Shown here: in pieces, positions 5,019 through 46,383 of the stretch
Numbering within the stretch: the first letter of the stretch is position 1
Layout of the letters: each line of letters begins with the position of its first letter
Sequence record: MK295204
Length of the DNA stretch: 64,000 nt
Source of the DNA: Shigella phage vB_SdyM_006
Strand: one strand, 5' to 3'
Notes under the pieces: model-generated
What the model saw: only the letters and a program-made list of their open reading frames with translations
Told to the model about the DNA's origin: nothing
Databases searched by the model: none
Program-made: the position numbers and the translations under genes

Positions 5019-5027
5019 AATAATTCC

Positions 5028-5660: not shown

Positions 5661-5664
5661 ATAA

Positions 5665-6099: not shown

Positions 6100-6518
6100 A
6101 AAGCTTCTTTTAAAACTTCTATAGCATGCTTAATTTCAAAAGGGATACCTTCTGATGGATGCTGGCGAATGTTATCGTCAATATGACTAAAATCCATGCC
6201 AATTACACGGACTTTATATTTTTGCTCACTATCAAATTCTGATATATTAGAACCCCAAGTGTTTGATGATGTAACTTCTTTAGTCTCAAAATAAGTACAT
6301 CCACAATGACAATATTCGTGCCAAAAATCACAGTCTTTATCAAATAAAGGGTGGTCTTCGCGAAGAGTTAAATATACCGCATAACTCCAATCCGGACGAC
6401 CATCATTAAATAAAGCTTTATAACTAGGTGGTAATCCTGTAAACCATGAAGTAACTTCAATAGCTTCGCCTTTCTTTTTATCTGCATGAACAGTGTATAC
6501 ATATTTTTGAATAGACAT
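6096..6518 (-). CDS. Cys/His-rich protein coupled to macro-domain gene
   Basis: Stop overlaps macro start (ATGA); contains CDFWHEYCHCGC cluster; no family recognised. Confidence 0.55.
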   Translation of the reverse strand: MSIQKYVYTVHADKKKGEAIEVTSWFTGLPPSYKALFNDGRPDWSYAVYLTLREDHPLFDKDCDFWHEYCHCGCTYFETKEVTSSNTWGSNISEFDSEQKYKVRVIGMDFSHIDDNIRQHPSEGIPFEIKHAIEVLKEAL

Positions 6519-6716
6519 TTATTTTACCTCAATAATAGTGAGTTCAGTATCTTCTGTCAAATCACAAAAGTCAAAAGCCAATGCAGCAATACCTGGGTAT
6601 TCTGATTCGTCAATAATACATTCAGTATTATTATTTTTGATGTCTAAGGCTAATTGATAATTAGACGTAGTAAATCCAAGTTCAAGTTCTTCGCACCATA
6701 CGGTATACTTTTTCAT
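6519..6716 (-). CDS. small protein, tandem paralog A (65 aa)
   Basis: Begins MKKYTVWCEE, ends TIIEVK; paralog of adjacent gene. Confidence 0.55.
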   Translation of the reverse strand: MKKYTVWCEELELGFTTSNYQLALDIKNNNTECIIDESEYPGIAALAFDFCDLTEDTELTIIEVK

Positions 6717-6911
6717 TTATTTTACCTCAATGAGTTCACAATCGTATAAACAACTACACAGTTCACAAAAAGAATAAGCCGATGCATATGAATCAGTGTC
6801 TATCCAAAACCCAAGATTATCAATAGCACCTTTACGAACTTCATAAGCAAGTTGATAATCAACTGTTTCAAATCCAATTTTCTTTTCTTCGCACCATACT
6901 ATATATTTCAT
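6717..6911 (-). CDS. small protein, tandem paralog B (64 aa)
   Basis: Begins MKYIVWCEE, ends ELIEVK; abuts paralog A. Confidence 0.55.
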   Translation of the reverse strand: MKYIVWCEEKKIGFETVDYQLAYEVRKGAIDNLGFWIDTDSYASAYSFCELCSCLYDCELIEVK

Positions 6912-7756: not shown

Positions 7757-7977
7757 GTGATTTTAACACGATCATGATATATTACTCTATCATGGCTTTT
7801 TGAAACTGTAAATCCTTTTTCTTTAAGAATTTCAATCAACGCATCTTTAATGGCTTCATTTTCTGGAAGCTTTGCGTAATGCTCTGTACTATCATGCAAA
7901 GCCAGTTGGCAAATATCATTTAACACAATAGCTAAATTGTGTTCAACAACAGTATTTTTAAGATCAGATAAATTCAT
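7735..7977 (-). CDS. hypothetical protein (80 aa), first gene of leftward accessory operon
   Basis: ORF with ATG; candidate GTTTAC promoter upstream. Confidence 0.5.
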   Translation of the reverse strand: MNLSDLKNTVVEHNLAIVLNDICQLALHDSTEHYAKLPENEAIKDALIEILKEKGFTVSKSHDRVIYHDRVKITWDYSKC

Positions 7978-8010
7978 ATTATTCTCACAGTTGCGAATTG
8001 ATGATGTGTA

Positions 8011-8039
8011 TACTATATTATAAAATAGTGTTTGTAAAC
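8011..8039 (-). promoter_or_regulatory. candidate early promoter for leftward accessory operon
   Basis: Minus strand GTTTAC, 16 nt spacer, TATAGT. Confidence 0.35.
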
Positions 8040-8062
8040 ATCTAAAATAATTTAAAATAAAT

Positions 8063-8091
8063 GTTTACTTTTGCTGTCATTATGATATTAT
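8063..8091 (+). promoter_or_regulatory. T4-type early promoter, copy 1 of repeated promoter/5'UTR cassette
   Basis: GTTTAC (8063-8068), 17 nt, TATTAT (8086-8091); followed by conserved leader ending GGAGTATATTATG. Confidence 0.6.
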
Positions 8092-8133
8092 ATACATATT
8101 GAAACGAAACATGAAAAACAAATGGAGTATATT

Positions 8134-8478
8134 ATGAATAAGACACAAATCAATGCAGTTTTAAAAACTTTAGGTTATGGTAATTTACGTTATTCTAATG
8201 GTAAAACATACCGCAGAGGAAACTCTATGGTTAAAGGTTTTCATTTAATTTCTACTGGTGCATGTATGGTGACTTCACCAGAAACACAAAAATTTAGTGA
8301 TCTTGTTAATGAGTTAAAACAACATTTTGAATTACAATCATATTATGACAATTGCATGGCAATATTTGTGACAGGAAAATTAAAAATTGTTGTTTGTTTA
8401 ACAAATTTTAATACATACGGTGGCTTAAACCCAGATTATAAAACATGGTTTGCATCTGTTAATATTGAAAAGTTATAA
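8134..8478 (+). CDS. hypothetical protein (114 aa), rightward moron-like gene
   Basis: ATG at 8134 preceded by GGAG; opposite orientation to neighbours; own promoter and terminator. Confidence 0.55.
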   Translation: MNKTQINAVLKTLGYGNLRYSNGKTYRRGNSMVKGFHLISTGACMVTSPETQKFSDLVNELKQHFELQSYYDNCMAIFVTGKLKIVVCLTNFNTYGGLNPDYKTWFASVNIEKL

Positions 8479-8481
8479 AAC

Positions 8482-8509
8482 AAAAATGGGACCGTAAGGT
8501 CCCATTTTC
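8482..8509. terminator. bidirectional intrinsic terminator
   Basis: AAAAA, stem ATGGGACC, loop GTAA, stem GGTCCCAT, TTTT; between 8134..8478 (+) and gp54 (-). Confidence 0.6.
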
Positions 8510-9422
8510 AAATTAATCTTGTTACAGCTCCTATTCCTCCTCCAGCACCACCTAATCTTGTTAAATTTCTTAATGAAGAGCTTAAAGAGTTTTCTTCTGA
8601 AATTGTATCTATGGCACCAATTGCTTTTGATTCTAACCAATCAAGAGCTGCTTGCCTACCGACAGAACCTACCTGCATCACCCTGTATGCGAATGTAACA
8701 TCAAAAACAGCAATAGTATTATTATCTTCATATGAAAGTTCAGGAGCACCTACCGACATAGGAACACACCCTGTGAACATGGCAACAGTATGTGGAAGAC
8801 CGTTTCTATTGTGTAAATTAACCTGGATATCGGCTTCAACATCTATAGGTAAAGCACGTAGTCCTGTGATTGGGTCTTCAACTGAATTCACCCAATCTTG
8901 CATAGCTCGATAATTACTTGCTTCTGAATCCATCCTAAACGAAATTATCAACGGGTCATATTCTCTAGATAGAACTTTTATATTAGGTGAATTATGATTT
9001 TTATCCATCTCATAAGATAGTCTGTTTTCTGGTAATTTGACAGAATAAACCATTAACCCAGATGTTGGAAATGCCATATTAAAGAAATCTAATAGATAAG
9101 TCCCTACTTCAAATTCTCCTAATAATGATTGAACCACACGATTAGACATGGCTCCTAAAAGATATTTAGAAACACCAGATTTTCTCACTAGTTTTTGAGT
9201 ACCAGCAACAACTAGACTTGATACTGCACTAGTTACATCATTTTGAGATATTCCAAGAAAATCTGTATCTATAGGTAAATTGTTAAACAAAAAACCACCA
9301 AAATTATCTAAAAGCTCATTAGTTTTTGATGATGGGGCTGTGGCAAAAACAACACTAAACATGTTTGTTCTTTGGAAGTCAAGATTGACAGCTTGGCTTT
9401 TAAATTCTTCTAATGTATACAT
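8508..9422 (-). CDS. 54: baseplate tail-tube initiator gp54-like
   Basis: 304 aa; position and size fit T4 gene order 29-48-54. Confidence 0.65.
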   Translation of the reverse strand: MYTLEEFKSQAVNLDFQRTNMFSVVFATAPSSKTNELLDNFGGFLFNNLPIDTDFLGISQNDVTSAVSSLVVAGTQKLVRKSGVSKYLLGAMSNRVVQSLLGEFEVGTYLLDFFNMAFPTSGLMVYSVKLPENRLSYEMDKNHNSPNIKVLSREYDPLIISFRMDSEASNYRAMQDWVNSVEDPITGLRALPIDVEADIQVNLHNRNGLPHTVAMFTGCVPMSVGAPELSYEDNNTIAVFDVTFAYRVMQVGSVGRQAALDWLESKAIGAIDTISEENSLSSSLRNLTRLGGAGGGIGAVTRLI

Positions 9423-15760: not shown

Positions 15761-15798
15761 TATAATAAAATGGTTATAATGAATCATTTGGAGGAACT

Positions 15799-16209
15799 AT
15801 GAATTTAGAAGAATTACAAACAATGTTATCAGAAGATTTAAGAATTGATCCATTAAAACTTCAATATGAAGCTGCAAATAATCCAACATTATATGGAAAA
15901 TGGTTAAAAATTTATTCTGATATAAAGAAAGGAATTATTTCTTATGAAGCTAATAAGAAAAAACTTTTAAAACAAAGATTAGACCATTATACTGGACGTG
16001 GTGATGAAGTGTGTATGGACTTATATGAAAAATCAGAACTTAAAACTGTTATTGCAGCTGACCCAGAAATTTTGAAAACACAAACATCTGTGGAATATAG
16101 AACATTATTATTGGATTTTGCATCAAAAGCTTTAGATGCTATTAAAGCCCGTGGATTTAGTATTAAGCACATTCTAGAATGTAGACAATTTGAGGCAGGA
16201 ACAAAATGA
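15799..16209 (+). CDS. uvsY: recombination mediator UvsY
   Basis: 136 aa; KLQYEAANN and LLDFxSxALDAIKxRGFxIKHI match T4 UvsY. Confidence 0.9.
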   Translation: MNLEELQTMLSEDLRIDPLKLQYEAANNPTLYGKWLKIYSDIKKGIISYEANKKKLLKQRLDHYTGRGDEVCMDLYEKSELKTVIAADPEILKTQTSVEYRTLLLDFASKALDAIKARGFSIKHILECRQFEAGTK

Positions 16210-16577
16210 CAAGCATTGATGTATTGAATCAACAGATTGATTTAGCTTCTTCAATTGAAGGAATTACTGACAAAACTCCTGTAATAAAATCAATGAAACA
16301 CTATTTAAGAGATATAAATAATATTAAGCCAATGGCTGAAGGTATACTTAAAAGTAATAAATTACCTGATTATACATTATCTCAAATCATTGAAGAACTA
16401 AAAGGATGGGCTATGGACCATATTTGTGTAGTTTGTAAAAAGCCTATTGATGAGAGTTTAGTTATCTATAACGATAATAATGAACCTGTTCATCCGGGGC
16501 CTTGTTATAATTTTGCTAAAGAACAACCTGTAACAGAATCAGGTCATTCTTTAAATGAAGTAGAATTATTAATGTAA
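16206..16577 (+). CDS. hypothetical Cys-rich protein downstream of uvsY
   Basis: 123 aa; CVVCKK...HPGPCY suggests zinc ribbon. Confidence 0.5.
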   Translation: MTSIDVLNQQIDLASSIEGITDKTPVIKSMKHYLRDINNIKPMAEGILKSNKLPDYTLSQIIEELKGWAMDHICVVCKKPIDESLVIYNDNNEPVHPGPCYNFAKEQPVTESGHSLNEVELLM

Positions 16578-33333: not shown

Positions 33334-33607
33334 ACTTAGGTTCGTTTAAGTCAACACGGTAATAACATACCATAGTTTTCATTTGTTGTAAATATCTTTT
33401 TACATCTTCAAGCCAAATTCTTAAATCTTGAGAGTCTTTATAAGATAAAGCAACTTGTGGGCCGTCTTTATTAATGACTTTCCATTTTACATCTAATGGC
33501 TGAACAGGAGCTGGCCATTGTGGATGGATTTTAGGCACTTCCTGTGGTGCAGGAACAACGCTATTGCACCCGGTTAATAACATAATAGGAATTATCAGAT
33601 GTTTCAT
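33299..33607 (-). CDS. outer-membrane spanin (o-spanin) lipoprotein
   Basis: Signal peptide with lipobox LLTGC, Pro-rich periplasmic segment; follows i-spanin as in T4. Confidence 0.7.
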   Translation of the reverse strand: MKHLIIPIMLLTGCNSVVPAPQEVPKIHPQWPAPVQPLDVKWKVINKDGPQVALSYKDSQDLRIWLEDVKRYLQQMKTMVCYYRVDLNEPKCENYDKSKNIM

Positions 33608-33963
33608 TTCGTTTCCTCTACAACACTATCAGTGAACTTTTTAAACGAATTATTAATAAGTTTAGACACTAGTCCAGGTTTAGATTCAACGATATGTTCA
33701 CGAGCTGCATCTTTTTTTAGTTTATAAGTTATGCTATTGGTTTCCGTCTGAATAGAACTAAACTTATCGTTTAAAGCGTTGTATTGCTTTATTTGATTAT
33801 TAAGTTTTTCTTTATAATCATCAAATTCTGTATTAAGCTTTTGTAGTGCTTTTTCTGTTTGATCTAGTTTTGTTGCATTTTCTGTGTATAAATGGAATAA
33901 TACCCCATTACTCAAAATAAGAACAAGACCAATAACTAAATAAATTTTTGTGTTCATTGACAC
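33604..33963 (-). CDS. inner-membrane spanin (i-spanin)
   Basis: N-terminal TM helix IYLVIGLVLILSNGVLF then coiled-coil-like periplasmic domain. Confidence 0.65.
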   Translation of the reverse strand: MSMNTKIYLVIGLVLILSNGVLFHLYTENATKLDQTEKALQKLNTEFDDYKEKLNNQIKQYNALNDKFSSIQTETNSITYKLKKDAAREHIVESKPGLVSKLINNSFKKFTDSVVEETK

Positions 33964-34454
33964 ACCTTAAAAATTGTGTTAATGATGTCGTCAGAAGATA
34001 ATCCTCTGAATAGAATATGATTTCTTGATGTTGAAGAACTACAGGAAAAAGAAGGGATTAAAGAAGCCATATCATCGTATGTTAGTTCTTTATGCATAAT
34101 ACCAAGTTGGTGTTTTTCATAAATCGGGTCAACGATAATATAGCATTTATGGCCATTGATATGAACATTAGGCTGTGAAATATTAATAAAGACCTCTGCA
34201 TCAGTGTTAGCTAAATAACTTTCTAAAAATGACTTCATTTCTTGAACAGCTTCAGGTAATTTTTCGCGTCGTTCTTCAGAAACACGATTATTATATTCTT
34301 TTTGTTTGAGTGATTTAGATTTATTACGACCTAAAGCTGCTCTTAAATCAGACAAATAGCCTACGCGTTTAGAGCCTTTCCAAACAGATAACCCATCATG
34401 ACGGTCTCCAAAAGAAGCCACTACCATATCATTTGTAATTAGTTGTAAATCCAT
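33954..34454 (-). CDS. hypothetical protein at the alc position
   Basis: 166 aa (T4 Alc 167 aa) between rnlA and spanins; synteny and size only. Confidence 0.4.
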   Translation of the reverse strand: MDLQLITNDMVVASFGDRHDGLSVWKGSKRVGYLSDLRAALGRNKSKSLKQKEYNNRVSEERREKLPEAVQEMKSFLESYLANTDAEVFINISQPNVHINGHKCYIIVDPIYEKHQLGIMHKELTYDDMASLIPSFSCSSSTSRNHILFRGLSSDDIINTIFKVCQ

Positions 34455-34511
34455 GTTAACCTCTCATTTTCAAATTTGTCTTACTATATTATAAAAATGA
34501 GAGGTTGTAAA

Positions 34512-35630
34512 CTACTTTTTATATACTTCTGGGATAAAAAATGTGTAGTATTTAACAAATAGATCGTTTAAACATGATAATAATACGTCATAGTCAAATC
34601 CATTATACATTTTCATATAGGCAGAAAACACTTGTGGCACGCCTGCTTTATTGAATTCTGTCTGACCATTGATTGCGTAGTCTTTTCGATCTTTTCCAAG
34701 ATTTGCTTCATAAACCATTTTAACAGATTCAACTTGGTCATGAATAGCTTGAGTATAGACTTCTTCAAAGGCTTTAATTTTTTCTAAAGATTCTTGGTCA
34801 TTTGCAAATAATGATTTCAAATCGTCAGAGGTTCCTTCTACAATTGCTTTAAAAAGGTCTTCATTTGAAGTAATAGAATCTTTTGTTCTGTGTAAAGAAA
34901 CATAAGCATAACTTTTTACTTTAAATTTAGTCCCATCAGACATCTGAGCAACAACGCCTTCAATACCTTGTGATTCATAAACACGCTCTACCCAACCTTC
35001 TTCAGGTTCGTATCTAGTAACCAAAATTGGTCTTAATTCTTTAATTGCTTTTAAAGAGTCATAATCAATATATTCGCCGGTTTCATTATGACGAGCATTT
35101 AACAAGATTAAAGCTGGCTCAGAGTATTTAAGAACAATACGATTTGTTGGTGCAACATATTCAAAATTAAAAGTGTACTCAGGGTTATCTTTAATCACTT
35201 TCCTAACTTCAGAATACATTTCACTATTGATTAGTTTACATGCCTCTAGAGCCTGTTCTGAGCTAATAGAACCTTTAGATTTTAGATAAACGAACCCGTC
35301 AACAAGATAAGAACTAATTAATGAGCCGTCAGCTTTATCCATGAGATATTCTACTTTAGAAAGATCTAAATCCATTGTCATAGGATTTTCGTTTAAATTA
35401 AAAAACTTTTCCATAGGTCTAGAAAGAACTTTGACTGGATTATTATCTTTATCAAGTTCAAACATAATACCACGACATTCTAAAGCATCTGGCAATAACC
35501 AATCTGAATATGAAGCATAATTATAATTAAAAATCCTTCCTTTTTTATCTATACTCAAATTTACGTCATTATAGAAAAACTTTGTTCTATCATACTCGCA
35601 TAAAGCCATCAAATTGTCAAATAGTTTCAT
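34512..35630 (-). CDS. rnlA: RNA ligase 1
   Basis: FNYNYASYSDWLLPDALECRGIMFE, RPMEKFFNLNENP, KADGSL match T4 Rnl1. Confidence 0.9.
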   Translation of the reverse strand: MKLFDNLMALCEYDRTKFFYNDVNLSIDKKGRIFNYNYASYSDWLLPDALECRGIMFELDKDNNPVKVLSRPMEKFFNLNENPMTMDLDLSKVEYLMDKADGSLISSYLVDGFVYLKSKGSISSEQALEACKLINSEMYSEVRKVIKDNPEYTFNFEYVAPTNRIVLKYSEPALILLNARHNETGEYIDYDSLKAIKELRPILVTRYEPEEGWVERVYESQGIEGVVAQMSDGTKFKVKSYAYVSLHRTKDSITSNEDLFKAIVEGTSDDLKSLFANDQESLEKIKAFEEVYTQAIHDQVESVKMVYEANLGKDRKDYAINGQTEFNKAGVPQVFSAYMKMYNGFDYDVLLSCLNDLFVKYYTFFIPEVYKK

Positions 35631-36037
35631 TCTTTTTCCTTATGTTGTGTATTCCAATCAGGGTTAAACATTTTAATAAAAATTGGCTCTTCAAGGTCCA
35701 TAGTACTTATTTCCATTTGCCCTAAATCATTTTTAGCCACTAAGTCAAAACACTGACGATAATAAAATATTACAGATTTACCTTGATTTAAAGAATCATA
35801 GATATTTTTAGATTTAGTGGAATCTGAAGTCCAAGTTTGCCTGTTCATGGAAGTTCTGTAATAATTTATCCTCTTTCTAAGATTTTTAGTTTTACCAATG
35901 TAAACTAATTGTCCATCAACTTCTATAGCGTATATTACATTTCTTTTTGTTTTAAGCTCTTTTGGAATAGGTGATATTTCATTATTGTCTAAATTGAGCT
36001 CTAAATATTTTACAAATCCGAATTGTTTAAATGACAT
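35627..36037 (-). CDS. denA: endonuclease II (GIY-YIG)
   Basis: 136 aa, same length as T4 DenA; VIYAIEVDGQLVYIGKT; position between rnlA and nrdB. Confidence 0.8.
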   Translation of the reverse strand: MSFKQFGFVKYLELNLDNNEISPIPKELKTKRNVIYAIEVDGQLVYIGKTKNLRKRINYYRTSMNRQTWTSDSTKSKNIYDSLNQGKSVIFYYRQCFDLVAKNDLGQMEISTMDLEEPIFIKMFNPDWNTQHKEKE

Positions 36038-36044
36038 AAAAATA

Positions 36045-36060
36045 AAGGGCCGAAGCCCTT
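36045..36060 (-). terminator. intrinsic terminator after nrdB
   Basis: Minus strand AAGGGC-TTCG-GCCCTT then TATTTTT. Confidence 0.5.
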
Positions 36061-36064
36061 CTCC

Positions 36065-37237
36065 TTATAAGTATTTCTTAAATCCATCTAAAACTTCTGG
36101 ATTAATATCTTCATCAATTTGAGAAATTAAATAAGAATCGATTTCAACTTCTTGAGGTGCTGATTGAACACCTTCAGAATTTAGATATTTAGACATCCAG
36201 ACTAAAGGATTTTTAAGACCTTTATATGGACTATTTAATCCAGCATGACGCATTCGGATATCAGTAATATAGTCTACATAGCCTTTAAGATTTGTATGGT
36301 TTAAACCTGAGACAGTCCCAAATTTAAACAGATCATCTACCCAATCTTTTTCTTGTTGATTTACTTCTAAGAATAATGTAGTAGCTTCTTCTTCAAGTTC
36401 ATCTGCGATTTTTTTCCAGTGTTCGCCTTCTTTACCAGATTGCCATTGACGAATCATATATTGAGTGCCTTTAAGATGTAATTGTTCATCACGGGCAATC
36501 AACTTCATGATTTTGGTATTGCCTTCAAGAACACCTTTGTTTTCGAAGAAATTAAATGTACACGCAAAAGATACATAAAACCGAATAGCTTCTAAAGCAT
36601 TAATGGCATGCATACATAGATATAGTTTACGCATGGCATCATCTAAATCTTTTTCATATCGATTCCAAGCGCCAATTAATTGGAATCCTGTTGGGTCTCG
36701 TTGTTCTTCTTCCTCAATAATGTCTTTAATATTTTCGTATTCTCTGATAGCCTTAATTAAAGAATCATAATATTTTGTGATTGATTCTGCACGAGCCATA
36801 ATAGCATCATCAAGAACAATTTCGTCAAATTCTTTTGATGGGTCTTCATAAAGATTACGCATAATATGAGTATAAGACCTAGAATGAATTGTTTCGCTAA
36901 ATGACCATGTTTGAATCCATGTTTCTAATGAGACATCAGAACAAATAGACAATAAAGCTTCTGATGGACCACGTCCTTGAATAGAATCAAGAAGTGTTTG
37001 ATATTTTAAGTTATTAGTAAAAATTCTTTTTTCGTGTTCAAGTAATTTGTCGTACTGTGATTTGTCTGTCATTAAATTAACTTCTTCTGGCCGCCAAAAA
37101 AAGCTTAAAGCTTTTTCAGTCAAATCTTCAAAGACTCGATGTTTTACTGTTTCGTAACGTGCAATACCTGTTGATTCACCAAAGAACATTGGCTGAGACA
37201 TGATGTCGATTTGTTCTTTATTAAAAATAGTTGCCAT
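36065..37237 (-). CDS. nrdB: ribonucleotide reductase beta subunit (class Ia), uninterrupted
   Basis: Co-linear with T4 NrdB (FFWRPEEVNL, SYTHIMRNLY, EAIRFYVSFACTFNF); single continuous ORF. Confidence 0.95.
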   Translation of the reverse strand: MATIFNKEQIDIMSQPMFFGESTGIARYETVKHRVFEDLTEKALSFFWRPEEVNLMTDKSQYDKLLEHEKRIFTNNLKYQTLLDSIQGRGPSEALLSICSDVSLETWIQTWSFSETIHSRSYTHIMRNLYEDPSKEFDEIVLDDAIMARAESITKYYDSLIKAIREYENIKDIIEEEEQRDPTGFQLIGAWNRYEKDLDDAMRKLYLCMHAINALEAIRFYVSFACTFNFFENKGVLEGNTKIMKLIARDEQLHLKGTQYMIRQWQSGKEGEHWKKIADELEEEATTLFLEVNQQEKDWVDDLFKFGTVSGLNHTNLKGYVDYITDIRMRHAGLNSPYKGLKNPLVWMSKYLNSEGVQSAPQEVEIDSYLISQIDEDINPEVLDGFKKYL

Positions 37238-37377
37238 TTTAATCCTTAATTTTTCTTTTTACAAGGGTCCCATCTTTTACTGCTTTGTCATAAGCAATTT
37301 TAATTAATCGTAGACGTTCCACTTTAGAATTTCTAATTTTGTTAAAATCTATCTCGGACGAATCCGAGATAGTTGTA

Positions 37378-39618
37378 TTATAACTTACAGCTTTCGCAAT
37401 CTGACTGTCCTTGATCTTCATCTTGATTATTACCATCATTAGTATTATGATAATACATAGTTTTTCCACCTAATGACCAGAAGTATAACATATCATCCAT
37501 GATTACGCTCATTGGTACCTTAGATTTTTCATAAATACTTGGAGTGTAATAAGTATTAACAGAAATACTTTGGTCTACAAACTTCTGCATAATAGCAGCT
37601 TGAGTTAAATAACCTTTCATTCCGCGTTTACTTAGGTCCCAGGCATAATCATAAAGATCTTCATTAAACTCAATATTAGGAACAACTTGATTAAACGACC
37701 CGTCTTTAGAAGCTTTAGCTGTTACAGATTTTCTTGGTGGTTCAATACCATTTGTGCTATTAGAAACTTGAGAAGACGATTCACACGGCATTAATGCAGA
37801 TAAAGTACTGTTTCTGATACCATATTTCTTAAGGTCTTTTCTTAAAGATTCCCAATCACAAACATATTCCGGTTTAACAATTTTATCTAAATTTTTATTA
37901 TACCAATCAATAGGTAATAAGCCTTGAGAATACTTAGTTTCGTGATAAAGTTCGCATGGACCTTTTTCTTTAGCTAAATCAACAGAAGCTCTGATTAATG
38001 CATATTGTAGTCGTTCAAATAACTCATGAGTAAACTGTTGTGCATTATCATAATTTAAGAACTGAGAAGCTAACGCCGCTGCATAGTTAGTTACACCCAT
38101 TCCTAATGCTCTACGTTTTTTAGCAATTAAAGCTTTTTCAACAGGATAATCTTGATAATCTAATAAAGCATCTAATGCTCGGACACCGACACGTGCAATT
38201 TTATTAATTTGTTCTTGGTCTTGATAATCAAAAGAATCTAGAACAAATGCACTTAATGTACATAAAGCTATTTCGCCATCAGGTTTGCCTACATCACTTG
38301 TTGGCAATGTAATTTCAGCACATAAATTACTTAATCTGATAGGTGATGTTCTTCTGATAAAAGAACCTTGTCTATTAACATTATCGACAAAGAACGGATA
38401 AATTCTTGCAGTGTTAGCTCGTTCAGTTAATAGAATAGAAAATACTTCTGAAGCCTTAATTCGTTTTTTACGAATATTAGGGTCTTTTTCTGCTGCTTCA
38501 TATAAATTACGGAATTTCTCTTCATCAGAAAAATATGAATCATACATTCCTTGGACTTCATGTGGGCTGAACAGAGTAATATAATCGTTATTAATTAAAC
38601 GTTCAATCATAAGGTTATTAATTTGAATTCCATAGTCAAGATGTCGAATACGGTTTTCTTCAATGCCTTTATTATTTTTTAGAACAAGCAATTTTTCTAA
38701 TTCAAGATGCCAAATTGGATAATATAATGTAGCAGACCCACCACGAATACCACCTTGAGAACAACTTTTTACAGAAGCCAAATGAGTTTTCCAGAAAGGA
38801 ATAACGCCAGTGTGTCTTACTTCGCCTGAACCAATTTTAGAACCTTCAGCACGATACATACCAGCATTAATGCCAATCCCAGCTCGTTTAGAAATATATT
38901 TGATAATTGAACGGTTTGTTTCATTAATAGAATCTAATGAGTCACCACTATCAATAACAACACAAGAGCTAAATTGACGAGTAGGTGTTCGTACACCAGC
39001 TAAAATAGGTGTAGGTAATGATAATTGTTTATCCGAGACTACGTCATAGAATTCAATGACCTGGTTTAATCGATTATTAGTTTCTTCTTGGAATAAGCAC
39101 ATCCCAATTAGCATAAATGCATATTGAGGAGTCTCGTAAATAATTCCAGTCGAACGGTCTTTAACTAAGTATTTACTTATTAATTGCATTGTCCCTGCAT
39201 AAGTAAATTTAAAATCTTTATCATGATTGATATGATTTTCTAATTCTTCAATTTCTTGTGCTGTATATTTACTTAAAATCTCAGAATCATATAATCCCAG
39301 GTTTACATTACGAGAAATTAATTCAATAAATGGAATAGGATTAGATTGTCCATATACTTTTTTACGTAATGCAATATGCTCTAAATTAGAAGCCACATAC
39401 TGATAATCTGGGGTTTCTTTTGAAATATTAGAAGCAGCAACTTTAATAATTGTTCGTTGAATCTGCTCTGTGGTCATATTATCTGTAAACATTGGTCTAG
39501 AGATTTCCATTACTTCATATGGGTCCACTGATGTATTTCTGCATGCAATCTCTAGTACATTAATAATTTTAGATTCGTCAAAATCTTGAGTTACACCTGA
39601 TGATTTAATTACTTTCAT
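37378..39618 (-). CDS. nrdA: ribonucleotide reductase alpha subunit (class Ia)
   Basis: 746 aa, ATP-cone N-terminus, C-terminal CESC; upstream of nrdB as in T4. Confidence 0.9.
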   Translation of the reverse strand: MKVIKSSGVTQDFDESKIINVLEIACRNTSVDPYEVMEISRPMFTDNMTTEQIQRTIIKVAASNISKETPDYQYVASNLEHIALRKKVYGQSNPIPFIELISRNVNLGLYDSEILSKYTAQEIEELENHINHDKDFKFTYAGTMQLISKYLVKDRSTGIIYETPQYAFMLIGMCLFQEETNNRLNQVIEFYDVVSDKQLSLPTPILAGVRTPTRQFSSCVVIDSGDSLDSINETNRSIIKYISKRAGIGINAGMYRAEGSKIGSGEVRHTGVIPFWKTHLASVKSCSQGGIRGGSATLYYPIWHLELEKLLVLKNNKGIEENRIRHLDYGIQINNLMIERLINNDYITLFSPHEVQGMYDSYFSDEEKFRNLYEAAEKDPNIRKKRIKASEVFSILLTERANTARIYPFFVDNVNRQGSFIRRTSPIRLSNLCAEITLPTSDVGKPDGEIALCTLSAFVLDSFDYQDQEQINKIARVGVRALDALLDYQDYPVEKALIAKKRRALGMGVTNYAAALASQFLNYDNAQQFTHELFERLQYALIRASVDLAKEKGPCELYHETKYSQGLLPIDWYNKNLDKIVKPEYVCDWESLRKDLKKYGIRNSTLSALMPCESSSQVSNSTNGIEPPRKSVTAKASKDGSFNQVVPNIEFNEDLYDYAWDLSKRGMKGYLTQAAIMQKFVDQSISVNTYYTPSIYEKSKVPMSVIMDDMLYFWSLGGKTMYYHNTNDGNNQDEDQGQSDCESCKL

Positions 39619-39629
39619 TTTATTCCTTT

Positions 39630-40196
39630 CTAGATATAATATTGATCTATTTTTCTAATATGGCTTTTAATAAACGAACTTAATATGGATGACAATTTTA
39701 TAGAATTTTCTACATTGTAACACCCCATAATCTTTTTATCACAAGATGCTAAAGAAAACATATAAACAGGTTCTTTGTTTTCATCATTTAAATAATTAAC
39801 AATAGATACAGCAGAAGAAAAATGGTTATTGTTTTTATCATCTGTTAAAAAATCTTTGATACATATTTCTGTCTTAGATTCTGCATGGTATTTCCAACTA
39901 TCTAGATATTTCACAAGTTTATTAAGCTTAGTTTTATAATGGGATAAAATTTTATCTGCACATATTTTATTAGGGGTTTTACCGTATGAATAAAAACTTG
40001 GTGTGTGTAAAATAATATGTCTAGTCCCGAAATTAAATCCTATAGATGCCACTAAATTTATAGGTCTATTTTTATTTCTTATCTTTTTGTATTCTAAAGA
40101 AACAGATTCTGATAAAACAATCCATTCGGATTCGTTAATTTCATAAAAAGCATTATTTGATATTTCTGTGGAAATATCAGTTTTATTAATATACAT
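39630..40196 (-). CDS. hypothetical protein (about 188 aa)
   Basis: Track start is TTG at 40241; ATG at 40196 avoids overlap with upstream gene. Confidence 0.45.
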   Translation of the reverse strand: MYINKTDISTEISNNAFYEINESEWIVLSESVSLEYKKIRNKNRPINLVASIGFNFGTRHIILHTPSFYSYGKTPNKICADKILSHYKTKLNKLVKYLDSWKYHAESKTEICIKDFLTDDKNNNHFSSAVSIVNYLNDENKEPVYMFSLASCDKKIMGCYNVENSIKLSSILSSFIKSHIRKIDQYYI

Positions 40197-40203
40197 AAAA
40201 GTC

Positions 40204-40488
40204 TCACAAATATATTTTATCATTAAACAGTTTATTAACAACTTCGGCTATTATATCACCATGGCATGGCTTAGGATAACATGTGCAACCAAGTCTAGAG
40301 CCTCTTAAAACTTCAAGATGATGTTTATTTATTTCGCCAGTTTTTATTTTATTAAGAAAATATGGGATAAACCTTTTGATGTTTTCTTCTCTAGTTCCAT
40401 CTTTAAAAGGATTACCCCACATTGTCCCTCTTTGAATATTAATATCAAAGTCAGAGTTATATTTATTAACGACTCTACAATGTTTCAT
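40204..40488 (-). CDS. DUF4326-like small protein
   Basis: WGNPF near N-terminus and LGCTCYPKPCHGDI near C-terminus fit the DUF4326 pattern as recalled. Confidence 0.5.
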   Translation of the reverse strand: MKHCRVVNKYNSDFDINIQRGTMWGNPFKDGTREENIKRFIPYFLNKIKTGEINKHHLEVLRGSRLGCTCYPKPCHGDIIAEVVNKLFNDKIYL

Positions 40489-40649
40489 TAACTATACATT
40501 AAAGGAAGAATTACAACAAACAATAATAGCATAATTAATAATAATTCCATTATATCTCCTTAAACCAAGGTTGGGTTTCTTCATACAAAAATCCGGCCAT
40601 TAAACAAATAACAGGAAACCAAATAATAAAAGCTATTAAATATTCCATG

Positions 40650-40997
40650 TTAGTCCTTTGGCTTCATGAATTCTAATAAAGCTTCTTTAAGTTCGCTAAT
40701 ATTAAGCCAGGCATTAAATTCTGATTTATATTCTCTAAAGTCTATAATATATTCTAAAGGAACAATAGAACCCAATTTTAGTTCATGTGTATAATCAAAC
40801 AGTAACGTTGAACCAGAATAACAACTAATTTTTAAATTTTCGTATTCGTTATAATTAAATTCAATTGTCTTATCAAATGGGTCTACATCATACAATAATT
40901 CGCATTTATACAATTCGGAACAAAGGGATTCTACAGAATCCCAAATTCCTAAAGTGTGCTCATAATCATCATAGACCGCTTGGACTAAAAAATTCAT
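40650..40997 (-). CDS. hypothetical protein (115 aa)
   Basis: ORF. Confidence 0.45.
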   Translation of the reverse strand: MNFLVQAVYDDYEHTLGIWDSVESLCSELYKCELLYDVDPFDKTIEFNYNEYENLKISCYSGSTLLFDYTHELKLGSIVPLEYIIDFREYKSEFNAWLNISELKEALLEFMKPKD

Positions 40998-41005
40998 AAT
41001 ATTTC

Positions 41006-41857
41006 CTATACACTGAAAGGGTATTTAATAGCAGGGTGATATTGATAATCTTGTACTTCAAAATCATCTACAGTGACCCAGGTTTCAATATCTTCTAATG
41101 ATCTGATATTATCATTAATAATAAGTTTAGGTGCATTAAACGGCGTCCTAGACACATGCTCTGGGACTAAAGATAATTGGTCTTCATAGATATGGGCATT
41201 TGTTATCTTATGAAACACTTTACCAGGTTTATTTGCTGTAATCTGGGCCATTAAATGTAAAAGCACATAACACTGAATCATATTAAAATTTAAACCTAAT
41301 GGGACATCACATGATCTTTGGTATGAAGTTAAATATAAAGTCCCATTAACGAGAGAAAAATTATGGGTATGCATACAAGGACGTAAACAACCTAAGTCAA
41401 ATTCTCCTGGATTCCAGAACGTTAGGATTTCTCCACGATCATCAGTTCCTTCACTTAAATTATCATAGATTTTTCTGAGTTGGTCAATAGTGCTATTAGG
41501 TCCTTGCCATTGTCGTCCTTGAACACCATAAACACGGCCCATATCGTCTTCACCTTTGCGATGAGGGTTATTTAGCCATGCTTGATTTTCATTAGCGTTT
41601 GCATTCCATGTATTACAACCAATTTCACGAAATTGCGCTGCATTGTCGTAACCACGAAGATATCCTAACAGTTCAGCAATAGCAGCTTTATAAAAGCTTT
41701 TACGAGTTGTATCAATTGGGAATTCAGAATATTCTAGGTCGGCATTAATAATAACACGACAAAATTTTCCAGTTCGTTTATTATATACGTCTTGGCCTTC
41801 ATTATAAATCTTTTTTAATAATTGTTGATACTGATTCTTTTCTAAGATCTTTTCCAT
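41006..41857 (-). CDS. td: thymidylate synthase family protein, uninterrupted
   Basis: [29 protein letters not shown] align with ThyA; active-site region reads LRPCMH not the usual PCH; position between frd and nrdA. Confidence 0.8.
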
Positions 41858-42147
41858 TTATTATCACTCACGTACACCAATTGTTTAAAAGATAGTTTAA
41901 GCTGTTCTATAGATACTTTAGAATCCGCTGTAACGAATTCTAATTCACCCATTCCTAGCATTTTACCATCAACCCAAAGTTCAATACATGTCATGTCCCA
42001 CCAATTTTTTCTAGAATTCAAGAAATCTCTAACTTGTTCTAAGTTAGAGAAAACTCCTGCGTTTCTAGAGGATTCACACATATTATGGTCAACAACAATA
42101 AGTATCTTCGACATTTTTATCCACCAAAACAAAATAAATTTGCTCAC
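41842..42147 (-). CDS. hypothetical protein
   Basis: ORF; start uncertain. Confidence 0.4.
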
Positions 42148-42496
42148 CTTGTTTAATAAAATATCCGTAGATTTTTACTTCAGTATCTTTAACTTTAACA
42201 TACCCTTCAGAAACGGCTTTTGTTATGTCAAATAGTGTAGTACGAATATAAACCAAGCCATCTTTAGTTCTAATAGATGTACATGATGAATTTATATTTG
42301 AGCCAAGTTCTTTTATATCACAAGAAATCTCATAAATACCATGGTGTAATTCTCGTTCTTGACAATTTCTATAATTAGATTTAAAAGTTTTTAAAGAAAT
42401 AGAATCTAAAAAGAATGTTCTTGAAGGAGGCGCTTTAACTAATTTCCATGAGCACATTGGTTGTACAAACTTTTTATACAATTTAATTTCAGCCAT
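42089..42496 (-). CDS. hypothetical protein, tandem paralog (135 aa)
   Basis: Shares W.LV.APK, HG.YE, ISEG with next ORF. Confidence 0.5.
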   Translation of the reverse strand: MAEIKLYKKFVQPMCSWKLVKAPPSRTFFLDSISLKTFKSNYRNCQERELHHGIYEISCDIKELGSNINSSCTSIRTKDGLVYIRTTLFDITKAVSEGYVKVKDTEVKIYGYFIKQGEQIYFVLVDKNVEDTYCC

Positions 42497-42890
42497 TATT
42501 CAAGTCCTCATTTATTAAAGGATAAAGACAAATAATACGGCCATTTTTTCTAAAGATACCTTTAACTGTAATTAAGTTATTTTCAATTTTAGTATGTCCT
42601 TCAGAAATAGATTTAAAAAGACGACATAAACATGTGTCCATTTTAACAGCTCGTTTATCTGTGATATCTGAATTTGTCAAATATAAATCGTGTCCATTAC
42701 CGCCATATTCTCTATCAATTTTATAATTTTTTAATTCGTAGACACCATGCGGCATAACATCAACATGTTCTTTTCGTATTAAAGATTTATACCCATCGAT
42801 AGTAAGGTCTTTAAAGAATAAGAAATGTTCTTTAGGTGCTTCTACAAGAACCCAATTATTTTGTTCTTCAAATCTGTGAATTAGTTGCAT
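42489..42890 (-). CDS. hypothetical protein, tandem paralog (133 aa)
   Basis: See previous feature. Confidence 0.5.
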   Translation of the reverse strand: MQLIHRFEEQNNWVLVEAPKEHFLFFKDLTIDGYKSLIRKEHVDVMPHGVYELKNYKIDREYGGNGHDLYLTNSDITDKRAVKMDTCLCRLFKSISEGHTKIENNLITVKGIFRKNGRIICLYPLINEDLNNG

Positions 42891-43510
42891 ACTCGTTCCA
42901 GTATAGTTTCTTCGATATAATTTTTAATATCGATATCGTTAAAATAATCAGTAACATATAAATGAGATTCTACTAACTTAAATTTAGCGTATCCACTCAA
43001 ATATTGCCCAATAGATTTATCTAAAAATGTATCTGCAGGATTTGTATCTGCATGTAAAACAGAAGTCCAAATAATCCTATCACAAAATTCAAATGAAGCT
43101 TCGATTAAACGTTTACCACCTATAATAGAAACTAAGTTCTTAGGGTTCTTGTTGTTAAATGTTGGAGCAACTTCGGCTTCTTTACAGATTTGTTCTAATT
43201 CATAAGGACCCCATGGTCCTACTATTTCTTTATCAGCAGGTTTTCCGTCTAATGAAAGTAGTTCACCTCTAGGGTCATCAACAAGAACAATAGAAATTCG
43301 GTCTTTCAATTTAGGCATAGACATAAATGTTTTAGGGCCCATGATAACATACGAATCAATTTGAGACGTAACAGGAACCATTCTAGGAGCTATAGTTCTT
43401 GATCTGAAGTTATCCATATCTTTTTTAATACGTGGCCAAGGAAGGGTTCCTTTGAATCCTATTCCGTATCCTTTCTGGTCGTATTGAGTTGCAAAAACGG
43501 TCTGAATCAT
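42881..43510 (-). CDS. frd: dihydrofolate reductase
   Basis: GFKGTLPW and VIMGPKTF resemble DHFR motifs; adjacent to td. Confidence 0.75.
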   Translation of the reverse strand: MIQTVFATQYDQKGYGIGFKGTLPWPRIKKDMDNFRSRTIAPRMVPVTSQIDSYVIMGPKTFMSMPKLKDRISIVLVDDPRGELLSLDGKPADKEIVGPWGPYELEQICKEAEVAPTFNNKNPKNLVSIIGGKRLIEASFEFCDRIIWTSVLHADTNPADTFLDKSIGQYLSGYAKFKLVESHLYVTDYFNDIDIKNYIEETILERVCN

Positions 43511-43544
43511 AGAATCTCCAAAGGGACTTTCGTCCTTTAATTTA

Positions 43545-43895
43545 TTAAGCTAGCCAAAAATCTTTATTCGTACCAAAAATATTAATTGTGACCTTATCAG
43601 CAGTCTCATCATATTTTTTATTAACTAAAACTAGGTCATCAATCTTGTGACATACACGAAGTTTCTTATAAAAATAATTTAATATTTCATAAAGTTCTTT
43701 TGTTTCTTCACGCGGTTCGTTAGACATACAATAACAACGAATAGCAGATAAATCATATCCAAATTCTTCTGGGCCCATAAGTTTTGCATTAATTTCTGCA
43801 GGGTCAACATCTTTATAACAACACATAGGGTAGACAGTCCCATCCATGTCACGAAATTTGAAGCCGTAATCTGCCAGTGTTTTTAAAGTTTTCAT
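43545..43895 (-). CDS. hypothetical protein (116 aa)
   Basis: ORF. Confidence 0.45.
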   Translation of the reverse strand: MKTLKTLADYGFKFRDMDGTVYPMCCYKDVDPAEINAKLMGPEEFGYDLSAIRCYCMSNEPREETKELYEILNYFYKKLRVCHKIDDLVLVNKKYDETADKVTINIFGTNKDFWLA

Positions 43896-43902
43896 ATTGT
43901 TC

Positions 43903-44406
43903 TCACATTTTTACCAAAGTTTCTTTTAAAAATTCATATGCACTGATGAAGTCTTTTTCTTCAGTATATCCAAGTTCAGGTATTTCAATAGAAGGGTCTT
44001 TAAATCTAGCTTCAAGAGTTTTTATCATTTTCTTGACACCTTTTTTATCTAAAAATACCGCTTTACCTGGTGTATATAAATTCGCAGAATACACTTTATG
44101 CTTAGTGGGCCCATCTACAATCTTACCTTCATCTAAAGGTTCTAAAAACTGTATTGTAAATTGAGTAAACAAATAAGGTGTAATAACCCATGGAACAAAT
44201 ACACCATCAACACAGAGTCGATAACAAGATTGATTAATTCGTTTAAGCCCAAATTCAACATCCCATTTACTAAAATCATTATTTGTAATATAATTAGCAA
44301 TTTGAGTATTTTGAACTCCATTTTTAGCATTAATGAATTTATTAAAATCTTCTTTAGATTTAAATTTGTACCGACATACGTTTTTAAGGTTTTTAGGCTG
44401 TTTCAT
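43903..44406 (-). CDS. hypothetical protein (167 aa)
   Basis: ATG with GAGG RBS; early promoter upstream. Confidence 0.5.
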   Translation of the reverse strand: MKQPKNLKNVCRYKFKSKEDFNKFINAKNGVQNTQIANYITNNDFSKWDVEFGLKRINQSCYRLCVDGVFVPWVITPYLFTQFTIQFLEPLDEGKIVDGPTKHKVYSANLYTPGKAVFLDKKGVKKMIKTLEARFKDPSIEIPELGYTEEKDFISAYEFLKETLVKM

Positions 44407-44434
44407 AATCTACCTCATTTGTTTTGATGTGTCC

Positions 44435-44463
44435 ATAATATCACGCTAAAAATCTTTGTAAAC
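44435..44463 (-). promoter_or_regulatory. T4-type early promoter
   Basis: Minus strand GTTTAC, 17 nt, TATTAT, just after gp32 terminator. Confidence 0.55.
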
Positions 44464-44482
44464 ATTTATTTTCTATAAAACC

Positions 44483-44508
44483 AAAAAAGGAACCCGAAGG
44501 TTCCTTTT
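44483..44508 (-). terminator. intrinsic terminator after gene 32
   Basis: Minus strand AGGAACC-TTCG-GGTTCCT then TTTTTT. Confidence 0.6.
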
Positions 44509-44517
44509 ATTAAGAAA

Positions 44518-45414
44518 TTAGATGAGTTCGTTTAAAATATCATCAACTGACTGGTCAGTCATTGAGCTTTCACCCAAATCAACTGGTTCGTTAAATGAAG
44601 ACATTTGACTAGAAAAATCATCTTGAGCAGATAAATTATCTAATTCGGCATCAATATCAGCAGAAGCATTTGATGCAGAACCTGCAACCATTCCAACACC
44701 CATAACTTGTTTAAACTTAGTTTCTAACTCAGCATAAGGTTTAAACTGGTCTTTAGCAACGATAGCTTGTAAATCTACACATTGATCAATAATTGATTTT
44801 TGAACAGCTTCATCATCAATATTAGGAATTTCTGATTGTGCATAGAACTTACAGTCATCATAATTAGGGAAATTACTTACTTTTTTAACTTTAAGAGCAA
44901 AGTTAGCACCTTCAAAAGGACAGAAAATATTTACTGGTGTCTCACCCATTTCGATATCAACGTTTGCCATAGAATCAATCTTATCCATGATTTTTTGACC
45001 GAAACGATATTTAAATACTTTACCTTCATTTTCAGGAGCACTTGGGTCTTTAACAACTAAAATATTAGCCCAATAAGAATGTTTACGTTTAATCAGTTTA
45101 TATTCTTCTGGATTAGTATTGTATGAGTCTTTTTCTGTTAAATATTTACACACTGGGCATGAATCATAATCGCCGTGTGTAGAACTACAATTATTGATAT
45201 ACCATTTACCATTTTTCTTAAAACCATGATTTGTTAGTTTAACAAATGGAGTAGCATTATCATCTTTAGCTGGTAAAAAACGAATTACTGCGTTACCATT
45301 ACCTGCGGCATCAGTTTTTAATTTCCATTCGTTTTTATCTTCGTTTTGAAAACCACCACCTTTTAAGCCAGCTAATTGTTCTTGAAGTTCTGTTACTGAT
45401 TTACGTTTAAACAT
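44518..45414 (-). CDS. 32: single-stranded DNA-binding protein gp32
   Basis: [51 protein letters not shown] match T4 gp32. Confidence 0.95.
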
Positions 45415-45455
45415 ACTTTTACCTTTATATTATTTACAGTTTTACTTTATTTACT

Positions 45456-46109
45456 TTAATATTTACATGCATTGATTGTTTCAACAAAAACTTTCTTTGC
45501 CGTTTCACTATCTATTTCTAGAAGTTTTTTATATGAACTTAATTTAGTTGAATATGTAGACCAAACTAAGTCAGTCGAACATTGGTCATGTTTATTTATA
45601 ATACCTAAAAACGAATCAAGTAAAATAAAAGTTTCATAACCAATGATATTAGATTGGAGAAGTTTGAATATATAAGATGTTTGTGTTTTAGTATTATATT
45701 CAAATATATCTTTAAGCGAACTTACATTTATCTTTTTAGAGAAGTAATAAATGTTTTTAAGGTCTTCTTTATAAACATCAGAAAGACCTTGTAATTTACC
45801 AATATATTCTCTATAAAATACCAAGGCGTCGGCGTCGGATATTTCACCTATCCAAGCATCTTGGTTAGCTACTAAATTAGAAATAAAAATATAAACAAGT
45901 TCATTAAGTTTATATTTATCAGAAAGTTTTTCAAAAAAATATTTATCACGACGTTTATTATAAGCCGCATCCGATATACGCATTGTCCAGTTATACTTAA
46001 TTACATCGTATTTACCGTTCATATGATTTTTTAACATCAAATATAATTGGTACACACTTTTACCGGTAATATATCTATTTGAATTATGTGGAATACGGAC
46101 TTTAATCAT
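45456..46109 (-). CDS. 59: helicase loader gp59
   Basis: 217 aa, co-linear with T4 gp59 (GKSVYQLYLMLKNHMNGKYDVIKYNW, ISNLVANQDAWIG). Confidence 0.95.
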   Translation of the reverse strand: MIKVRIPHNSNRYITGKSVYQLYLMLKNHMNGKYDVIKYNWTMRISDAAYNKRRDKYFFEKLSDKYKLNELVYIFISNLVANQDAWIGEISDADALVFYREYIGKLQGLSDVYKEDLKNIYYFSKKINVSSLKDIFEYNTKTQTSYIFKLLQSNIIGYETFILLDSFLGIINKHDQCSTDLVWSTYSTKLSSYKKLLEIDSETAKKVFVETINACKY

Positions 46110-46113
46110 AATA

Positions 46114-46383
46114 TTAAAATAAGAAATCTAATGTATTCATTGTAAAAGATTTACGAACAGATGGACGAAGCTCGTTGTTTTCTAAAGCTTCTTTAGTAAT
46201 TTTATCAACTATAGCACCTGGTAAATACTTATTACATAAATTGTATGGAATAGAATTTTCTTCTAACCAATTTGTAGAAGCTTCTAAATAAGAAGCTCCT
46301 TCTTTAACTTTTTGTTCAATTAAAGCTCCAACTAATGTTGGGTCTTCTATATCAATATTATTGGTTTGGGAACAAAGAGTCAT
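46114..46383 (-). CDS. 33: late transcription co-activator gp33-like
   Basis: 89 aa between 59 and dsbA; synteny only. Confidence 0.5.
   Translation of the reverse strand: MTLCSQTNNIDIEDPTLVGALIEQKVKEGASYLEASTNWLEENSIPYNLCNKYLPGAIVDKITKEALENNELRPSVRKSFTMNTLDFLF

Follow-up and report, generated by a model that had tools for sequence, protein, structure and literature searches.

The stretch analysed here comprises 64,000 nucleotides (nt) of Shigella phage vB_SdyM_006 (sequence record MK295204) and is called the window below. Between positions 36065 and 41857 it carries td, the gene for a thymidylate synthase (TS), together with nrdA and nrdB, the genes for the two subunits of a ribonucleotide reductase. 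All genes of this region lie on the minus strand and follow the order of the T4 locus, which served as the reference: gp32, frd, two small paralogous open reading frames (ORFs), td, three small ORFs, nrdA, a 137-nt spacer, nrdB, denA and RNA ligase. Proteus phage SJ_PmiM (MW367898) matches the region at 97.9% identity over 100% coverage, Proteus phage phiP4-3 (MG696114) at 96.9%, and the wider stretch 33565-44357 shares 98.5% identity with SJ_PmiM. These two phages, with PM2 and Pm5461, were the members of Bragavirus (Straboviridae), a genus of T4-like Proteus phages, to which the window phage was compared. With high confidence, we take the region for the usual T4-type block of nucleotide-precursor genes (frd, td, nrdA, nrdB, denA) as a Bragavirus carries it, with a conventional Td, a class Ia NrdAB and intron-less alleles. 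The genes are already annotated in published genomes of 98% identity, and the finding is an ordinary one with little at stake for the window.

Continuity of td, nrdA and nrdB

The three genes and the empty intron positions were located as follows (lengths in amino acids, aa; a slash marks the position of an insertion):

41006-41857, minus strand: td, thymidylate synthase, 283 aa, single ORF (PF00303, NF002498)
37378-39618, minus strand: nrdA, class Ia ribonucleotide reductase large subunit, 746 aa, single ORF
36065-37237, minus strand: nrdB, class Ia ribonucleotide reductase small subunit, 390 aa, single ORF
41293-41294, minus strand: empty position equivalent to the T4 td intron site (PLG/LNFN), placed by alignment
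41314-41315, minus strand: empty td intron site of the phiP4-3 type (YQR/SCDV; CAA AGA/TCA)
36561-36562, minus strand: empty position equivalent to the T4 nrdB intron site, within the Cys226 codon (T/GT)

Family profiles run through the products from end to end. Td is matched by PF00303 over positions 1-266 of 266 (E 2.5e-71) and by NF002498 over 2-283 of 283, and NrdB by the NF006576 equivalog over 4-375 of 376, with 472 bits against a cutoff of 346. NrdA has the ATP-cone, all-alpha and barrel domains (PF03477, PF00317, PF02867), the barrel being covered over 1-523 of 523. The iron-ligand and tyrosyl-radical motifs of NrdB can be read in its translation as DSIQ, SETIHSRSYTHI, ALEAIRFY and RDEQLHL. 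Judged by these domains and motifs, NrdA and NrdB form a predicted class Ia ribonucleotide reductase.

In T4, a group I intron of 1016 nt, which encodes I-TevI, follows ...FLG in td (junction GTTTTCTTGGGT, intron, CTACCGTTTAAT), and nrdB carries one of 598 nt inside a Cys codon (junction TTTTGCGT, 598-nt intron, GTACCTTT). The Td of the window aligns through the T4 td exon junction unbroken. The same holds for NrdB, which is 57-60% identical to both T4 NrdB exons and passes the junction as SFA-C-TFNF; the nucleotides at the equivalent position read TCTTTTGCGTGTACATTT, with no break. Searched with the Rfam group I intron model (RF00028) at E<=1, the 12.8 kb from 33500 to 46300 gave no match, and a T4 control locus run with an E-value threshold returned both introns as Intron_gpI at E ~1e-6. 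The Rfam gathering threshold of 50 bits is a weak instrument here: the T4 td and nrdB introns score just 36.9 and 35.7 bits. No match was obtained at that threshold in the whole window or in the phiP4-3 locus, a null that is uninformative alone because the T4 introns themselves fall below it.

The profile matches, the junction alignments and the Rfam null with its positive T4 control together bear out two statements of the original prediction, made from the letters of the window: that T4 carries group I introns in td and nrdB, and that both genes are single continuous ORFs here. The sites filled by mobile elements in T4 and phiP4-3 are simply empty in the window, and nrdA likewise is uninterrupted. 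Intron-less td and nrdB genes are usual among T4 relatives, the T4 introns being the exception (PMC2988022), and older work had found the two introns inconsistently distributed among T-even phages (cited in PMC2988022). The intron-free and endonuclease-free state is the common one and no anomaly.

No homing endonuclease was found in the 64-kb window by tblastn with 10 GIY-YIG and HNH queries from T4, phiP4-3 and SJ_PmiM (best E 0.12), and the ORFs flanking td, nrdA and nrdB belong to DUF4326, DUF5486 or PHROG families of unknown function. That no homing endonuclease gene adjoins td or nrdB, as had been noted before, agrees with this domain, PHROG and tblastn evidence, with one qualification: a GIY-YIG gene does abut nrdB. 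This gene is denA, a host-DNA nuclease and no homing endonuclease. Its candidacy as an adjacent homing endonuclease was rejected because it is a full-length member of the endonuclease II family at the same position as T4 denA; its homologs in SJ_PmiM and phiP4-3 are annotated as endonuclease II. The 203-aa ORF at 39630-40241 was also considered as a hidden homing endonuclease and rejected: Pfam and NCBIfam gave no match, its PHROG has no assigned function, and none of the 10 endonuclease queries resembles it. The neighbours of td, nrdA and nrdB are:

44518-45414, minus strand: gp32
42881-43510, minus strand: frd
40650-40997, minus strand: ORF of 115 aa, function unknown (phrog_22133; no Pfam or NCBIfam match)
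40204-40488, minus strand: ORF of 94 aa, DUF4326 (PF14216, E 1.1e-20; phrog_464)
39630-40241, minus strand: ORF of 203 aa, function unknown, variable cassette (phrog_29380; no Pfam match)
37239-37469, minus strand: small DUF5486 ORF in the nrdA-nrdB spacer (PF17588, E 3.2e-9)
35627-36037, minus strand: denA, endonuclease II, 136 aa, GIY-YIG domain (PF01541; phrog_1111 over 4-138 of 139)

The GTG start listed for the DUF5486 ORF overlaps nrdA, and its true start is probably further downstream. Two side observations concern the small genes. Between frd and td stands a tandem pair of paralogs, the ORFs at 42089-42496 (135 aa) and 42489-42890 (133 aa) on the minus strand, which share 29% identity (E 4e-12). 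The 94-aa DUF4326 gene overlaps the start of the 203-aa ORF of phrog_29380, the two spanning 39630-40488.

Td within the ThyA family

Td scores 473.9 bits against the NCBIfam equivalog NF002498, a 283-residue thymidylate synthase model with a cutoff of 427, and 154.6 bits against TIGR03284 (cutoff 108.35); its PHROG is phrog_160, thymidylate synthase. Its active-site motif and the codon of a specificity residue lie at:

41369-41386, minus strand: LRPCMH motif, L158-R159-P160-C161-M162-H163, equivalent to E. coli L143-A144-P145-C146-H147-A148
41282-41284, minus strand: Asn192 codon, equivalent to E. coli Asn177

The original prediction had regarded the active-site context of td as atypical, reading LRPCMH where ThyA has PCH. 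The motif is indeed present at residues 158-163; PCH, for its part, is true of E. coli-type ThyA only. A homolog search over 5.8 billion proteins returned thousands of relatives, and a residue census was taken on the best 120. LRPCMH was read in 119 of these; by position (E. coli numbering, used below unless Td residues are given), L143 is Leu and C146 is Cys in all 120, H147 is Met in 119 and A148 is His in 120. Among the 120 is the ThyA of Proteus mirabilis, 72% identical to Td and present on at least 1000 contigs. Its locus, rppH-ptsP-lgt-thyA-ppdA/B-ygdB-recC, is the same as the E. coli thyA locus, so that P. mirabilis thyA is orthologous by position to E. coli thyA, and its product is presumably the housekeeping enzyme of the host. 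By tblastn, Td has a homolog at E<1e-40 in 879 phage records, and in about 700 of these the identity is at least 60%; many are from Vibrio phages, and Salmonella and Escherichia phages of ~105-118 kb are also represented. With LRPCMH in 119 of the best 120 homologs of a curated ThyA equivalog family, P. mirabilis ThyA included, the description of the context as atypical did not hold up: as judged from these alignments the motif is standard for a large ThyA subfamily and looks odd only beside E. coli ThyA.

Two further observations touch the ancestry of td. Identity to E. coli ThyA is 37% for the Td of the window and 50% for T4 Td. The td slot looks like a case of in-place gene replacement, and Morganella and Providencia T4-like phages carry the window-type Td. 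A recent capture of td from Proteus was considered and is not supported, identity being 72% to Proteus ThyA and 73% to marine gammaproteobacterial ThyAs.

Td was then compared residue by residue with seven references: E. coli ThyA, P. mirabilis ThyA, spliced T4 Td, T4 gp42, SPO1 gp29, a second TS homolog of SJ_PmiM, and the Td of Morganella phage MP1. It keeps R21, E58, W80, Y94, R126, L143, P145, C146, Q165, R166, S167, D169, F176, N177, H207 and Y209. It departs from E. coli ThyA by H147M, A148H, R127G, W83N, E82A, I79T and V262F, and each of these departures is common to 100-120 of the 120 family members. The catalytic nucleophile Cys146 after Pro145 is present in Td as P160-C161. Three arginines and a serine that bind the phosphate of deoxyuridine monophosphate (dUMP), R21, R126', R166 and S167, correspond to R28, R141, R181 and S182 and are invariant, as are E62, W84, Y110, D184, H222 and Y224, the counterparts of E58, W80, Y94, D169, H207 and Y209.

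The fourth phosphate-binding arginine, R127', is Gly142 in Td; Gly, Ala, Thr or Ser stands there in 120 of the 120, P. mirabilis ThyA included. Of the four arginines, the one that best tolerates substitution in the Lactobacillus casei enzyme is R179, the equivalent of R127', and structures of the R179T and R179K variants occur among the Protein Data Bank (PDB) fold matches of the Td model. The residue directly after the catalytic cysteine, His147 in E. coli, is Met162 in Td, with His next. As the same is found in 119-120 of the 120 members and in P. mirabilis ThyA, His147 is no requirement of the whole ThyA family.

Two positions separate the thymidylate synthases from their hydroxymethylase relatives. 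According to PMC13326640, N177 confers uracil specificity and Asp in its place cytosine specificity, and L143, thought to exclude water and so to yield a methyl rather than a hydroxymethyl product, is acidic in hydroxymethylases. The states found were:

Td of the window: Leu at L143 (Leu158), Asn at N177 (Asn192)
E. coli ThyA: Leu at L143, Asn at N177
SPO1 gp29 (dUMP hydroxymethylase): Asp at L143, Asn at N177
T4 gp42 (hydroxymethylase of deoxycytidine monophosphate, dCMP): Asp at L143, Asp at N177
SJ_PmiM second TS homolog: Glu at L143, Asp at N177

Asn at N177 is also found in P. mirabilis ThyA. Td lacks the signature of dCMP hydroxymethylases and 5-hydroxy-dCMP synthases (Asp177 with Asp or Glu at 143). 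It also lacks that of dUMP hydroxymethylases (acidic 143, Asn177, divergent C-terminus), for which SPO1 gp29, with its long and unrelated C-terminus, was the single reference. The C-terminal tail of Td is kept, KYPFSV aligning to KAPVAI of E. coli; this tail is missing from both T4 gp42 and SJ_PmiM's second TS homolog. Alignment with ThyA and with the dCMP and dUMP hydroxymethylases had been proposed as a check of the residues that set substrate and cofactor; in it, Td has the residues of a thymidylate synthase at L143 and N177 and the matching C-terminal tail.

An AlphaFold2 (AF2) model of Td reached a predicted template modelling (TM) score of 0.84, and its top PDB fold matches, 50 of 50, are thymidylate synthases at a TM-score of ~0.8. 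Several points speak against a conventional Td and have to be set beside these results. The local confidence of the model (pLDDT) falls under 50 in residues 83-91, in 99-113 and in 150-160, which form the loop directly before the catalytic cysteine, and we drew no fine structural conclusion from the model because its low-confidence loops include residues 150-160. H147, R127 and W83, which belong to the E. coli paradigm, are replaced in Td. The 283-aa subfamily is without a solved structure, the best PDB sequence match being 3v8h (9e-44, in two stretches). The activity of Td is predicted from sequence. Finally, N177D does occur in one family member, the Td of phage MP1 of Morganella, so the scaffold can drift; the Td of the window has not.

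Weighing these points, we regard Td as a conventional thymidylate synthase, predicted from its family membership and residue states, both of which were observed directly. It would methylate dUMP to deoxythymidine monophosphate via Cys161 (E. coli Cys146) in a folate-dependent reaction. Its place is in a 283-aa gammaproteobacterial ThyA subfamily, outside the T4 Td lineage. Met after the catalytic cysteine, His one position later and the replacement of R127 and W83 are subfamily traits, with no sign of new chemistry.

Intron turnover, modified pyrimidines and other rival readings

Collinearity between the window and its sister phage phiP4-3 breaks at three places. In the td gene of phiP4-3, a 1055-nt insertion follows the codon of the essential Arg181 (YQR/SCDV), 21 nt upstream of the T4 site, at 7941-8995 of the compared locus piece on the minus strand and between flanks of 97% identity. 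The insertion starts with TAACAAG, ends with CAAAG and is preceded by T; its excision restores a Td of 283 aa, 280 of whose 283 residues are identical to those of the window. It encodes a GIY-YIG endonuclease of 251 aa and is homologous to the T4 td intron with I-TevI (71-91% identity over three segments). RF00028 gave no match to it at E<=1. The assignment as a predicted group I intron draws on the homology to the T4 td intron, the U ending exon 1, the G ending the insert and the restored ORF. No description of the insertion was found in the literature searched.

The exon sequence beside this insertion differs between the alleles. The four intron-less td alleles (window, SJ_PmiM, PM2 and Pm5461) all read CAA AGA/TCA, and phiP4-3 only reads CAG CGT/TCA, so that two synonymous exon changes adjoin its insertion; U therefore stands at -1, a requirement of group I 5' splice sites. 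The nicking positions of I-TevI and I-BmoI on their substrates are identical, and I-BmoI depends on G at -2 (PMC3161791). From these nicking positions and the G at -2 we infer for the phiP4-3 site a correspondence with the I-BmoI-type position of Bacillus mojavensis thyA.

The second difference is in the nrdA-nrdB spacer, where 37240-37376 of the window (137 nt, with the DUF5486 mini-ORF) is replaced in phiP4-3 by 629 nt (3676-4304 of the locus piece) encoding a free-standing HNH-type homing endonuclease (phrog_655) at the position of T4 mobE. Identity between phiP4-3 and the window beside the spacer is 95.2% on the nrdA side and 99.3% on the nrdB side, and the drop on the nrdA side could be a co-conversion tract. 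Third, 39629-40193 of the window, within the 203-aa ORF, is replaced by an unrelated 261-nt segment, the ORF being absent from phiP4-3. The Bragavirus td genes form a natural intron-plus/intron-minus pair, and the nrdA-nrdB spacers an endonuclease-plus/minus pair, both suited to homing experiments.

Is the intron-less state of the window ancestral, or were introns of td and/or nrdB lost by precise deletion? Gain and loss of introns and homing endonucleases do alternate among phages in nature (PMC2988022, PMC3984707), and the presence of the td intron in a sister phage of 97% identity is compatible with a loss. However, phiP4-3, present as GenBank and RefSeq copies, is the only Bragavirus with a td intron in the collection searched, the four other td alleles examined being intron-less, and an nrdB intron was seen in no Bragavirus examined. 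The codons beside the site, CAA AGA/TCA in 4 of 4 intron-less alleles against CAG CGT/TCA in phiP4-3, fit a recent gain with co-conversion in phiP4-3. A secondary loss is accordingly improbable compared with alleles that were never invaded. We lean, by a small step, towards a further reading of td: that it is the empty recipient allele of a mobile intron that changed address, the exon-pairing sequence of the phiP4-3 intron having been altered to fit the new site. If so, the Bragavirus td alleles would be a natural pair for studying the retargeting of an intron and its endonuclease, and the CAA AGA variant of the window a naive or resistant target.

A different reading concerns Td itself. It had been suggested that the LRPCMH context hints at synthesis of a modified pyrimidine. 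On this rival reading Td would be a diverged TS-family enzyme making, for example, 5-hydroxymethyl-dUMP or 5-methyl-, 5-hydroxymethyl- or 5-hydroxy-dCMP for phage DNA. Phage TS homologs are known for such chemistry (PMC13326640); H147M, R127G and W83N do set Td apart from E. coli ThyA; and MP1 Td, a relative, has N177D. Against this, the same substitutions occur in the housekeeping ThyA of P. mirabilis and in 100-120 of the 120 family members. Td keeps Asn177, Leu143 and the C-terminal tail, and it is exactly there that the hydroxymethylases and the hydroxylase-type homolog differ; it also scores above the curated thymidylate synthase equivalog cutoff. Moreover, the role appears to be filled already, as the near-identical SJ_PmiM has a separate TS homolog (L143E, N177D) in an RB69-like modification cluster, plus a dCTPase. 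With L143, N177 and tail in the TS state and the supposed oddities common to P. mirabilis ThyA, the hint is not supported and we consider such a role for Td very unlikely.

The second TS gene of SJ_PmiM (5275-5964 of the compared locus piece) lies just downstream of the DNA polymerase gene, outside the region that the window covers. Its cluster (660-6887) also encodes nucleoside triphosphate-transferase/kinase, phosphoheptose-isomerase-like, deoxynucleoside monophosphate-kinase-like, peptidase-U32-like and chorismate-mutase-like domains, and a gp56-type dCTPase follows further on, at 15763-16287. In gene content the cluster resembles the RB69-type cluster for arabinosylated 5-hydroxycytosine. 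Bragaviruses are among the genera predicted to have a 5-hydroxycytosine arabinosylation pathway, as stated in PMC13326640 (NAR 2026), whose text, as far as consulted, gives no explanation of the U32-like and chorismate-mutase-like genes; arabinosylation-related genes have been noted in phiP4-3 and Pm5461 (PMC8056088). A tblastn search of the 64-kb window with T4 gp42 and gp56 gave no match. The window phage may have a modified pyrimidine, for which td is not the enzyme responsible; the likely source of a modified cytosine, if any, is the second TS homolog, known from SJ_PmiM only and located outside the 64 kb.

LRPCMH is in consequence unfit for picking out TS homologs that modify bases; L143, N177 and the C-terminal tail are the features that carry information, and the right reference for the motif is the ThyA of the host P. 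mirabilis rather than that of E. coli. One side observation concerns a relative. The Td of Morganella phage vB_MmoM_MP1 (3001-3840 of the locus piece) reads LRSCVH and has Asp at N177 (NFD for NFN), with Leu143 kept and C168A. This combination of residues would predict dCMP-specific methyl transfer and makes the protein a possible candidate 5-methyl-dCMP synthase. According to PMC8056088, MP1 has neither a TS-gene homolog of the gp42 type nor known enzymes for non-canonical bases. The intron-site polymorphism in Bragavirus and the N177D variant of MP1, both outside the window, are only mildly new.

An intein or other in-frame insertion interrupting the genes without a frame break can be dismissed as having next to no probability: NrdB is indeed 14 aa longer than the 376-position equivalog profile, but its extra residues form a short variable loop (~residues 175-200) in the T4 alignment, the td, nrdA and nrdB profile matches cover the full lengths and leave no gap of intein size, domain and tblastn searches detected neither an endonuclease nor a Hint-type domain, and the collinear alignments effectively refute an in-frame element.

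Comparison with known systems

Among the closest known systems are the other Bragaviruses. In SJ_PmiM, PM2 and Pm5461, td, nrdA and nrdB are collinear with the window at 98% (SJ_PmiM) or ~86% (PM2, Pm5461) identity, all are intron-less, and the products are annotated as thymidylate synthase and aerobic nucleoside diphosphate reductase subunits. They differ from the window by point differences only, and the Td of SJ_PmiM is 99.3% identical to that of the window.

T4 gp42, SPO1 gp29 and the 5-hydroxy-dCMP synthase of the RB69 gp48 type belong to the PF00303 fold superfamily, as Td does, and the catalytic cysteine, R126, R166, S167 and H207 are common to Td and these TS-family hydroxymethylases and hydroxylases. 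The latter, however, have an acidic residue at L143, Asp177 where they use dCMP, and no TS C-terminal tail, features that Td is without.

Among the thymidylate synthases, the 283-aa ThyA subfamily (NF002498 / PRK01827.1-4; for example P. mirabilis ThyA) has the same length as Td and is 72-74% identical to it. Both share an identical GCLRPCMH stretch, the same insertion after W80 (ENxAWLNNPxRKGEDD) and the same R127G, W83N and V262F states. Unlike the bacterial members, Td is phage-encoded in the slot between frd and nrdA and has a slightly different N-terminus; at the Q151 position it has Asn, where most subfamily members have Thr. T4 Td belongs to the same enzyme family, occupies the same slot between frd and nrdA and has all catalytic residues in common with the Td of the window. 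It is, however, of the E. coli-like lineage with the PCH motif, whereas the uninterrupted Td of the window represents another ThyA lineage in the same slot.

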